DNA from: Limnothrix sp. BL-A-16
GTDB taxonomy: Bacteria; Cyanobacteriota; Cyanobacteriia; CACIAM-69d
DNA: 64,000 bases
NCBI GenBank assembly: GCA_041937175.2
Contig: CP166615.1
Coordinates: forward strand, 1,184,001 to 1,248,000
Reading direction: 5' to 3'
Positions 44,256-63,932 of this stretch are shown in pieces (positions within the stretch are counted from its first letter, which is position 1; every line of letters starts with the position of its first letter). The notes under the pieces are model-generated. The model did no database searches and was not told the DNA's origin. It was given only the letters and a program-made list of their open reading frames with translations. The position numbers and the translations under genes are program-made.

Positions 44256-44897
44256 TTACTTGTTGGGCTGGGGAGTCATGCGCAGGTAAGGCTTGATTTC
44301 CGTCACGCCCTTGGGGAATTTCTGGCGAGCTTCCTCGGTCGGAATCGAGGGAACCACCACGCAATCGCCGCCATCTGTCCAGTCGGCGGGCGTAGCCACA
44401 CTGTAGTTATCGGTCAGTTGCAGCGAGTCAATCACACGCAACAGCTCATCAAAGTTGCGGCCGGTGCTGGCGGGATAGGTGATCGTCAAACGCAGCTTTT
44501 TGTTGGGATCGATGATGAAGACCGATCGCACCGTCAGGGTGTTACCGGTGCTGGAATTGGGGTGAATCATCCCGTACAGTTCCGACACTTTCTTATCTTC
44601 GTCGGCCAGAATCGGATAATTCAGGGTCGTGCTTTGGGTTTCTTCAATGTCGGCCGTCCAGCCATGGTGCGAATCTACGCTGTCAACGCTCAGGGCCAGC
44701 GCCTTCACATTGCGCTTGTCAAATTCACCCTTCAGTTGGGCAACGCGGCCCAGCTCGGTGGTGCAAACGGGGGTATAGTCCGCCGGGTGCGAAAACAGCA
44801 CCACCCAGCTATCGCCTGCCCAAGCGTAGAAGTCGATCGAGCCGTGGGTGGAAGCCTGCGTGAAATCGGGGACGGTATCGCCAAGTCTGAGAGTCAT
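44256..44897 (-). CDS. 1-Cys peroxiredoxin (Prx6 type)
   Basis: FSHPADYTPVCTTE, YPASTGRNFDE, ATPADW. Confidence 0.95.
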   Translation of the reverse strand: MTLRLGDTVPDFTQASTHGSIDFYAWAGDSWVVLFSHPADYTPVCTTELGRVAQLKGEFDKRNVKALALSVDSVDSHHGWTADIEETQSTTLNYPILADEDKKVSELYGMIHPNSSTGNTLTVRSVFIIDPNKKLRLTITYPASTGRNFDELLRVIDSLQLTDNYSVATPADWTDGGDCVVVPSIPTEEARQKFPKGVTEIKPYLRMTPQPNK

Positions 44898-44925: not shown

Positions 44926-45092
44926 TTGACATCCTCCTCGCCCCAAAGGGTGAGGATTCCTCACCGCGCCTGAACCCAGCGAATCGGGCCGAGGTCGCTG
45001 AATGGGGTTGACGCTTCACAGGCCACCACTGGCGAACCAGTCTGACGCTGGCCTCCACGTCCGTTTAAAGTCTCGGACTGCCCGCCCGCGAC
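44926..45092 (-). ncRNA. Orphan TnpB omega/reRNA-like module with IS200/IS605 right end
   Basis: GTCGCGGGCGGGCAGTCCGAGACT...TGAAGCGTCAACCC...GAATCCTCACCCTTTGGGGCGAGGAGGATGTCAA; translates as a TnpB-tail-like VAGGQSETLNGRGG...CEAST; homologous to 58443-58608. Confidence 0.72.
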
Positions 45093-45326: not shown

Positions 45327-45404
45327 ACGATTAGGCGTTCGGGTCATCCTAATCACAGCCCGGAGTAACGATCAGGTGTTCAGGTCATCCTAATCACGGC
45401 CCGG
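45327..45404. repeat. Tandem 41-bp-period repeat x2, each unit a hairpin
   Basis: ACGATTAGGCGTTCGGGTCATCCTAATCACAGCCCGG and ACGATCAGGTGTTCAGGTCATCCTAATCACGGCCCGG. Confidence 0.8.
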
Positions 45405-45547
45405 GATGCGAATCTTGCGATCTGGATGTTCAGGATAGCAGGACTCTGTAGCGAAATTATCAGTCTTCGTAAATCTGCAATCCTTCCGGGGACAAACCGT
45501 AAAGTTCCGCAATGATCCTGAAATGTTCGCCATGCTTGCTTAAACCA

Positions 45548-57842: not shown

Positions 57843-58405
57843 TGCCGCTCCTCAAAACACCACACCAACAATCACGCCATATCATATCAGCAACGGTCAA
57901 ATTGCCGCAGAGAAGCGTTGATCCTCCTAAAACCAGCCTGGGCTGTGGGTTTCGGCGAACGATCGTGGCCTAAAATCTGGCAAATTTCTTGCGAATTCAA
58001 CCCATTTTGATGGGGAACAGCCCAATTAGTCCGATCGACCCAGAAGGGTGTTTGAGCGGCCCCAGCCAAGCCTCCAGCAGACCTCCAGCAGACCTTAACC
58101 AAGCCCAAACCCAGCTTTTGCGATCGCCCCACCGGGCCTCATTCCCAGCGGCCATCACTCACTTCGAGGCCAAACCGCAACCAGCGATCATGATCCCCGC
58201 AAAAATTCTGCAAAATCCGTTGCGATTAGTTTGGGATTCGGCCGGGATCGATGGTTAAATGTGGGCACATTGCTGGCATGATGGCTTGGCACTTGTCAGG
58301 CGATCACTTGGGGCAGCTTTTCGTGTGCTCGCCCTCTGTTTTGGGGGGATCGATCGACCCGATCAACCCCGCCTCAGTTCCCAGAATCAGATCGTGCAGT
58401 TAGCC

Positions 58406-58430
58406 TGTACCATATGATTTTGGGTACAAT
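58406..58430 (+). promoter_or_regulatory. Candidate -10 box TACAAT overlapped by TGTACC-N11-GGTACA inverted repeat
   Basis: TACAAT at 58425-58430, 12 nt before the omegaRNA-like module; no clear -35. Confidence 0.4.
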
Positions 58431-58442
58431 CAACGCCTTCAA

Positions 58443-58608
58443 GTCGCGGGCGGGCAGTCCGAGACTCGAAACAGACGCAGAGGTCAGCGCCAGCCTGGTT
58501 CGCCAGCAGCAGCCGATGAAGCGTCAACCCGTGGTCTAGTTGAGCAACTTTAGTAGTTGCTGAATTAGGGCTGGCAATCCCGCTCCGAAAATGTGGGAAA
58601 AACGTCAA
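58443..58608 (+). ncRNA. Orphan TnpB omega/reRNA-like module in the gap2 leader
   Basis: First 88 nt align without gaps to the prx copy (74/88 identical by hand count); ends CAATCCCGC...GTGGGAAAAACGTCAA. Confidence 0.7.
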
Positions 58609-58650
58609 CTATTTCCTTAATACACCCTAAGCACGCGAGGGCATAGCATA

Positions 58651-59664
58651 GTGATTAGAGTCGCCATTAACGGTTTTGGCCGAATCGGTCGTAACTTCTT
58701 AAGATGCTGGTTGACCCGCCAAGATAGCCAGCTCGAACTGGTGGGCATTAACGATACGTCCGACCCCAAGACGAATGCCCACCTGCTCAAGTACGACACG
58801 ATGCTCGGCAAGCTAAATGCCGACATTCAGGCTGACGAAAATTCCATTACCGTCAACGGCAAAACGATCAAATGCGTGTCCGATCGGGATCCGCTCAAGT
58901 TGCCCTGGGCCGAGTGGGGCATTGACCTGATCATTGAATCGACAGGCGTATTTGTTAGCGAAGAAGGCGCTTCTAAGCACATCCAAGCCGGTGCCAAGAA
59001 AGTCCTGATCACCGCTCCGGGCAAGGGTGACGGTGTTGGCACGTTCGTGATGGGCGTGAACGACAGCGACTACGACCACGACAAATTCAACATCGTTAGT
59101 AACGCAAGCTGCACCACCAACTGCTTGGCTCCCGTGGTGAAGGTGTTGCATGAGAACTTTGGCATCATCAAAGGCACCATGACCACCACCCACAGCTACA
59201 CGGGCGACCAACGGTTGCTCGATGCGAGCCACCGGGATGTGCGTCGGGCCCGCGCTGCGGCCATGAACATTGTGCCCACCTCCACGGGTGCTGCCAAGGC
59301 GGTGGCCCTGGTGTTGCCGGAAATGAAGGGCAAACTGAACGGGATCGCGATGCGTGTGCCGACCCCGAACGTTTCGGTGGTGGACTTTGTGGCCCAGGTG
59401 GAAAAGAGCACGATCGCCGAGCAGGTGAACGAAGTGCTGAAGGCCGCCGCTGAAAACGGCCTGAAGGGCATTTTGGAATACAGCGATCTGCCCTTGGTTT
59501 CGTCGGACTATAAGGGAACCGATGCTTCCTCGATCGTGGACGCTAGCCTGACCTTGGTGCTGGGCGGCGACATGGTGAAGGTGATCGCTTGGTATGACAA
59601 CGAGTGGGGCTACAGCCAGCGCGTTGTGGACTTGGCGGAACTGGTTGCCCGCAAGTGGAAGTAG
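58651..59664 (+). CDS. gap2: NAD(P)-dependent GAPDH (Calvin cycle, Gap2)
   Basis: [44 protein letters not shown]. Confidence 0.95.
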
Positions 59665-62904: not shown

Positions 62905-63932
62905 CAGCCTTTGCCTAGAACGATTGGCACGGCATAATTATAAGTTTAGTTGAGTTATCGTCAGGAAAACTCATGGGTCGTTATTCTCTGGACTTGCGCC
63001 GAAAGATTGTAGAAGCCTACGAAAAGGGAGACACTTCAATTCGGAAAGTGGCAAAACAGTTTTCGATTAGTCCAGATACCGTCAGGCGGCTTCTAAACCT
63101 ATATCGTTCAACTGGAAGCTTAGTACCTAAGAAGTGTGGCACGAAGCGAGTGAGCATCTTATCTCAGCATGAAGAAGCCATCTTAGAAATTGTAGAGACC
63201 AATCCTGATTTTACATTGCGAGAGTATTGCGAAGCAGTGCAAGAAAAATTGGGTGTCAGTTCTAACACAAGCATGATGGATCGATTTTTAAAGCAACATG
63301 ACATCAGCCTCAAAAAAACATACAGGAGCGAAAAAGTAATCACGGCGGAAGTACAAGCCGAGCGAGTGAGCTACTGGCAGAGAATTTTGAAAGTGGAAGC
63401 TGAAAAGCTTGTCTTCATTGACGAAAGCGGTTTTTAGGTTGGGATGAATCGCCCCATGGCCAGAGCTAAAAAAGGAATGAAGGCTTATGAAACCCAGAAG
63501 CCCTATTACGGTAAAAAGATGACAGTCATTAGTGCGATCAGGCGATCAGGAGTTGTCACAATAAAAGGATTGAAAGGCTCAATGAAAAAGGAAGATTTTC
63601 TAGAGTTTGTTAAAGTAAATTTGGCACCGCAGTTAAAAGCGGGTAATGTGGTTATCATGGACAACTTAAACTCTCATCATCGTCCAGAAGTGAAAGAAAT
63701 GATAAAAGCAGTAGGAGCAACAGTAGAATATCTGCCAGTGTATTCACCAGATTTTAACCCTATAGAAATGATGTGGTCACAGTTAAAAATCTTTTTGTGG
63801 AAATTTAGAACAGAAACCATAGAAGTGTTGGAACAATTAACTAGATTGGCAGCCCGACTGGTGGATTTACAGTGCCTGAAAAACTGGTTTACTAAATGTT
63901 GTTATTGTACCTAGTGATTACGGTAAGGGCTG
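62905..63932 (+). mobile_element. IS630-family insertion sequence (1028 bp) with TA duplication
   Basis: TA|CAGCCTTTGCC...GGTAAGGGCTG|TA imperfect TIRs; visibly more AT-rich than the flanks. Confidence 0.9.
62973..63914 (+). pseudogene. IS630 transposase interrupted by in-frame TAG at 63435-63437
   Basis: YSLDLRRKI HTH; FIDESGF*VGMNR...MDNLNSH...YSPDFNPIEMMW all in one frame. Confidence 0.85.

Follow-up and report, generated by a model that had tools for sequence, protein, structure and literature searches.

According to the accessible parts of the respective papers, gene-less PATEs that encode an omegaRNA and are served in trans have been described (10.1101/2023.03.14.532601), and PATEs are known together with terminal remnants of IS605 elements; one PATE, HqIRS71, retains its terminal segment along with a portion of the C-terminal part of tnpB, as does the kind of remnant considered here (PMC3119063). 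The accessible text of the former study also reports an orientation bias for IscB, where the guide needs outside transcription, and none for tnpB-bearing elements. By analogy, a gene-less copy without a promoter of its own should behave like IscB.

The window analyzed here, a stretch of 64,000 nucleotides from Limnothrix sp. BL-A-16, contains a remnant of a gene-less IS605 derivative, an element of a described kind, in front of gap2, which encodes a type I glyceraldehyde-3-phosphate dehydrogenase (58651..59664, + strand; NF005641, 711 bits with a cut-off of 616). The remnant spans 166 nt at 58443..58608 of the + strand, from GTCGCGGG to GTCAA, and combines the right end of an IS605-family tnpB element with its omegaRNA scaffold. 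The initial annotation had drawn the same module, with its GTCAA end 42 nt before the gap2 GTG (58651), and inspection of the sequence confirmed it. The scaffold stems lie at 58443-58465 (P1), 58474-58478/58521-58525 (P2), 58495-58506 (P3) and 58533-58572 (P4), and are followed by an end hairpin at 58578-58598 and the terminal TCAA; all the stems that had been named in the annotation are present in this copy. Its proposed identity as a TnpB omegaRNA scaffold is also correct: the module shows homology to the 3′ terminus of an element that carries tnpB (nhmmer, E 9e-44) and shares 76% identity with the 3′-terminal segment of the tnpB copy (G000:C1:673227-673389; G000 is the genome of the window). 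A second family copy, at 44926..45092 (− strand), lies 28 nt before a peroxiredoxin (prx) gene (44256-44897, −). The first 24 nt of the two copies are identical and 74 of 88 nt match without gaps (BLAST, E 7e-21), as had been reported. The variable stem was said to have changed in the gap2 copy. The two copies do differ there, but the odd one is the prx copy, the gap2 stem being close to that of the active element. The predicted fold of the gap2 copy (-62.5 kcal/mol, z -2.08; 4 of 200 shuffles were equally good) is comparable to that of the tnpB-linked copy (z -2.21). Rfam gave no match at gathering score in the window and two chance matches (E 3-6) in 58300-58700.

The annotation counted two copies. 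A profile search found fifteen copies of the family in the genome (BLAST alone gives six). The cognate tnpB encodes a 405-aa TnpB (G000:C1:672132-673349; NF040570, above cut-off) in a copy whose left-end palindrome follows TGAC and whose right end terminates in TCAA. Inspection of its RuvC residues, which the annotation had suggested, found D-E-D intact and the nuclease motifs kept. By inspection, the D, E and D motifs are kept at the RuvC motif positions in all five TnpBs of the genome. Insertion takes place 3′ of a motif of 4-5 nt, with no target duplication and with a TCAA end. Empty sites in G000 that correspond to four copies of the related genome G002 (L045, L047, L054, L201) consist of TGAC followed by flank, demonstrating precise insertion. 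Fifty tnpB-linked homologs show covariation in the stems (P2 35-80, GC in 40 and AT in 9; P3 54-63, TA in 33 and CG in 12) and in the end hairpin (134-152, CG in 32 and AT in 12). These 50 came from other genera and were selected from 80 loci, 13 being set aside as same-genus or distant and the others dropped for missing motifs or as duplicates. By analogy with the pseudoknot of ISDra2, a GAA immediately ahead of the P2 strand may base-pair with the 3′ terminus; no covariation was seen in this putative pairing. Active copies diverge by 2-7% in the scaffold segment compared with 29-39% at four-fold sites of tnpB, which indicates that the scaffold is selected in active elements. No IS200 TnpA (NF033573) scored above cut-off in any of the four genomes; their sole Y1 transposase-like gene (L006:1459-2256) is nearest to a REP-associated tyrosine transposase, with 56 bits, below the cut-off of 80.

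A number of other structures were observed in the family and the window. Seven stubs of 80 nt start just after an internal TCAA position (G000:C1:1071508, 4026979, 1931930, 635505 and 1157472; L201 and L203). The preceding 4 nt are TGAC or TCAC in three of the seven and show at most one mismatch in six, and the L201 empty site confirms that the stub starts at the target motif. The stubs look as though TnpA had excised the DNA between the left end and a cryptic TCAA inside the element. Left-end variants track the target motif, TGAC occurring with GGTACAA and TCAC with GGTCTGAA or GGTTTGAA/GGTTTGCA (L049, L071, L040, L058, L060), which is expected if a left-end guide pairs with the target. A gene-less element whose left end and scaffold are separated by about 140 nt of unrelated cargo (L044, L045, L047) is found at different sites in G000 and G002 and has therefore moved as a unit. 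The tnpB copies L039, L043 and L046 of genome G001 contain an in-frame 24-nt insertion right before the last RuvC motif, which may be a small dispersed repeat. At G000:C1:3909127-3909300 the 3′ end of an IS607-like tnpB family directly follows the right end of a family copy, forming nested remnants. An IS630 transposase split over two reading frames is present at 62973-63914 of the window.

Conservation points to TATGAT at 58413..58418 (+) as the likely -10 element of the gap2 promoter, with a transcription start predicted near 58425. Among the gap2 leaders of 27 other cyanobacteria, 25 have a -10-like hexamer, 46-77 nt ahead of the start codon. In the window this distance is 232 nt, owing to the insert; the insert, with the conserved hexamer on one side and the ribosome site on the other, is thus likely to be part of the gap2 5′ leader. 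A sigma-70 two-hexamer scan found no site for the gap2 promoter. The likely ribosome-binding site is GAGGG at 58637..58641 (+), judged from sequence and from the recurrence of this motif before gap2 in most other leaders. RNA-library contigs join the element and gap2 in three of four runs (bridging contigs X1, 58285-59617; X12, 58376-59189; X3, 58511-59186), and such contigs cannot prove a single transcript. X1 and X12 start upstream of the predicted start and an X7 contig enters murC, so that DNA may be present; the RNA runs were therefore not counted.

Presence of the insert in close relatives, on which the annotation had made its reading depend, was found throughout: it is in the likely gap2 leader of all four lineages of the genus, with a junction common to both other species (G002, 95%; G001, about 71% including flanks) and to L071, a metagenome contig of the same genus. 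The junction also occurs in a sequence record named Limnothrix. It is absent from all 27 other cyanobacterial gap2 leaders, the sister genus included (one of them with 99 nt upstream), and no empty gap2 allele was found in the genus. The annotation also held that an identifiable left end would make such elements ordinary non-autonomous IS605 derivatives. The gap2 ortholog in L071 keeps a complete one: TCAC precedes the left end there, and after some 30 nt come the scaffold and a right end of canonical form. This indicates that an ordinary IS605 derivative without a gene (PATE) is what inserted at this site. The window copy has lost its left end. The local alignment score for a left end is 23 at the window copy and 55 in L071, with 16-25 for unrelated upstream DNA, and comparison with L071 identifies a decayed target motif and an 8-nt remnant of the deleted left end at 58430..58442 (+). 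GGGTACAA at 58422 was considered as a left-end remnant and rejected, since G003 has this motif natively and L071 has it in front of its full left end. The left end was lost through different deletions in G000/G002 and in G001, and the scaffold is whole from its first base after both losses. Four-fold sites of murC near gap2 differ by about 50% among G000, G001 and L071, which implies that the insertion site is old. A single clade of the four gap2 copies was rejected (AU p=0.0008), and the G001 copy has the other P3 allele; gene conversion or repeat insertion at gap2 may have complicated a single origin.

To what extent the copy is still constrained can be judged from the positions at which it has changed. 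In the window genome, 10 of 58 family-conserved columns and 15 of 105 other columns of the gap2 copy have changed (p=0.77), and in G001 the counts are 12/58 and 26/105 (p=0.35). The L071 ortholog, with its left end present, has changes in 1/58 conserved and 11/105 other columns (p=0.03). The gap2 copy thus shows no selection at family-conserved nucleotides. Mutations have hit the GGAGGATG linker and the GAAT that precedes the end hairpin, and at the right end six of nine hairpin pairs and TCAA are left. These data speak against continued selection of the gap2 copy for use by TnpB as a guide or by TnpA as a substrate. G000 and G002 have a common deletion; between them the element differs at 9 of 166 positions, compared with 217 of 3706 (5.9%) in intergenic DNA; its flanks show no differences (0/48 before, 0/42 after; 9/166 against 0/90, p=0.019). 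Since the loss of its left end, the gap2 copy has drifted at the intergenic rate.

We consider it probable that the element is a tolerated relic in the predicted gap2 leader, retained selfishly under host promoters and then stranded. A gene-less copy would have entered a TCAC site in the ancestor of the genus, with its omegaRNA made from the gap2 promoter. Empty alleles could then have been cut by TnpB supplied from elsewhere, fixing the gap2 copy by homing, and the omegaRNA fold would have been preserved in this selfish phase. Loss of the left end would have put an end to excision, leaving the copy stranded and drifting while promoter and ribosome site stayed invariant.

A different fate of the scaffold, exaptation as a structured mRNA leader, has to be weighed against this. 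The 5′ hairpins would stabilise or tune gap2 mRNA and be kept by the host for that reason, perhaps also at prx, psaE and psbV. We regard such a role as possible but doubtful. The survival of the scaffold at full length through two separate left-end losses, over the span of the murC divergence given above, argues for it, as do the ribosome site and scaffold forming separate domains in the predicted leader fold. Stem pairs are kept above simulated random change both in G000 (45/49 against 37.8, p=0.002) and in G001 (43/49 against 34.5, p=0.001). However, nine of the 13 gene-less copies tested reach p<=0.05 in the same test, and the simulation overstates retention, since it includes changes from the time when the element was still selfish and leaves out hairpin-perfecting mutation. 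Double-sided pair changes in the G000 copy show no excess (1, with 0.85 simulated), and the folding energy of the whole element relative to mutated parents is not significant (12% of 150 simulations as good). Substitution after the loss, equal to the intergenic mean and above that of the flanks, also argues against a leader role, and gap2 does without the element in the 27 other cyanobacteria. The pairing data lend some support to selection of the gap2 copy as a structure.

The positions of the other copies bear on both readings. The annotation had remarked that the two copies it saw lie sense-oriented just upstream of redox/carbon genes. This genome does show a sense-upstream bias, but the genes concerned go beyond redox and carbon metabolism. 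A sense gene start is found within 200 nt of the right end in 11 of 14 gene-less copies, compared with 27.4% of 12,207 intergenic TGAC/TCAC sites (p=1e-4; 3,499 genes from our own gene calls, with the gap2 start corrected by hand). The downstream genes include psaE, psbV, hmpF, an AhpC/TSA protein and a histidine kinase, and tend to high-expression codon use (p=0.028). Both the sense position and the codon lean would fit mRNA leaders. The bias is seen in old copies, seven of eight of those found common to G002 being in leaders; the figures are 2/8 for tnpB-bearing copies (one uncertain) and 4/13 for copies private to G001-G003 (three contig-edge rows dropped and shared rows excluded). Although the numbers are small, this points to retention and not to targeting. 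Targeted insertion into leaders was considered and is not supported by the counts for tnpB-bearing and private copies.

Retention under host promoters raises the question of whether the gap2 copy is a working selfish guide even now, with TnpB loading the gap2 transcript in trans and cutting incoming empty alleles. We think this unlikely. The pairs of P1 (8/8), P2 (5/5), P3 (4/4) and the inferred pseudoknot (3/3) are intact in G000, and an intact cognate TnpB is available in the genome. Against this, conserved columns have been altered in the end hairpin and the linker, the inferred pseudoknot is broken in G002 (1/3 pairs), and the copy, lacking a left end, does not generate empty sites locally; nor, as stated, is an empty allele found in the genus. 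The prx copy would be the better candidate for a working guide: changes affect 1/58 conserved and 26/105 other columns (p=4e-5), and there are five double-sided pair changes (p=0.0004). This copy may instead derive from a sister subfamily. It differs from its G002 counterpart at 1 of 167 positions (p=0.0004 against the intergenic mean, 0.07 against the local one). It is absent from the prx leaders of G001 and G003. AGTACAAGCCC, 207 nt upstream of the prx copy, was rejected as a left end, as its score is at noise level and it lies beyond native DNA common to G001. Two near-identical direct repeats of about 30 nt are present upstream of the prx copy (window 45335-45405, −) and also occur in G002.

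Diverged copies are located in the leaders of psaE (G000:C1:3112064-3112226) and psbV (G000:C1:2520180-2520327). The psaE site is empty in G001, which argues against host retention, as does the missing prx copy there; at the psbV site G001 has an end-hairpin remnant, which argues for it. A general extension of the leader reading would be that, in this genus, TnpB scaffolds are being domesticated as structured 5′ leaders for abundant transcripts of photosynthesis and redox genes (gap2, prx, psaE, psbV). Selfish homing would first fix the copies under strong promoters, and the host would go on to keep the hairpins once transposon ends and TnpB contacts have decayed. This proposal is speculative and, in our judgement, rather improbable.

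The annotation favored an undescribed system and, as one form of it, a trans-acting guide. The data run against this: no target was found beyond chance, the cognate TnpB has D-E-D, L071 has a left end, and the conserved columns show no constraint. In its specific form, the guide would serve a domesticated, nuclease-dead TnpB (TldR-like) regulating a host or phage locus. The 20 nt of the guide position (58609..58628, +) are native gap2 leader DNA and are identical in all four lineages, which would fit such a function. The promoter side of the insert is equally invariant in 4/4 lineages, however, and the constancy of the guide position can be ascribed to conservation of the native gap2 leader. 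None of the five TnpBs of the genome is nuclease-dead. The gap2 guide has no motif-flanked target in the genome with a seed longer than 8 nt, which is chance level, and its 18-mer has no match in viral contigs. When nine guides were compared with the genome, the best motif-plus-seed match was 8-9 nt for three and absent for six, with about 0.9 such matches expected per guide. Of 29 matches to the 17-mer of the guide, two fall on gap2 junctions; the remaining 27, all from other taxa, are no more than chance predicts for a query this short. The TldR-like reading is thus largely refuted, and we consider it extremely improbable.

The stranded-relic reading can be placed among the described systems. 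TldR repressors (PMC10705468; 10.64898/2026.09.22.753285, accessible parts) resemble this locus in having a TnpB-derived guide near host genes; they differ in that there is no nuclease-dead TnpB and no promoter target here. The Salmonella IS200 5′tnpA small RNA, as presented in the accessible part of PMC12594629, is likewise an immobile RNA of the IS200/IS605 family, one that takes part in host regulation. That RNA is a trans-acting product of the 5′ end of tnpA, whereas a host role of the gap2 element is only a candidate. The likeness to the ISDra2-type IS605/IS1341 omegaRNA (PMC10097598, accessible part) is closer: a scaffold over the tnpB 3′ end, stems, an end hairpin, TCAA and a guide taken from the flank. 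The differences are a scaffold of 163 nt, an additional long P4 (missing in some cyanobacterial relatives), TGAC/TCAC instead of TTGAT and the lack of an adjacent tnpB.

In the accessible literature, with most subscription journals outside the search, nothing was found on leader-enriched omegaRNA relics in cyanobacteria, and the accessible text of PMC13565253 and PMC8136920 contributes nothing specific. As a relic the gap2 element is ordinary, since gene-less IS605 remnants with omegaRNA are already on record. Its contribution is a dated series for a single site, with the left end intact in L071, lost twice, and the guide decaying, and also a measurable sense-leader bias of old gene-less copies, to be set against the absence of orientation bias in the tnpB-bearing elements surveyed in the accessible part of 10.1101/2023.03.14.532601. 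If the leader role were true, guide RNAs of a CRISPR ancestor would have become host mRNA structure without domestication of the protein.

The closest match is to PATEs. According to the accessible descriptions, these have a non-coding length, subterminal palindromes, no target duplication, an omegaRNA at the right end and TnpA/TnpB provided in trans, and the L071 ortholog fits this description fully. The window copy, without a left end, falls outside the class; with its degraded right end it is a PATE remnant. It differs further in that the gap2 copy is fixed at one site throughout the genus, in what is likely the leader of a core gene.
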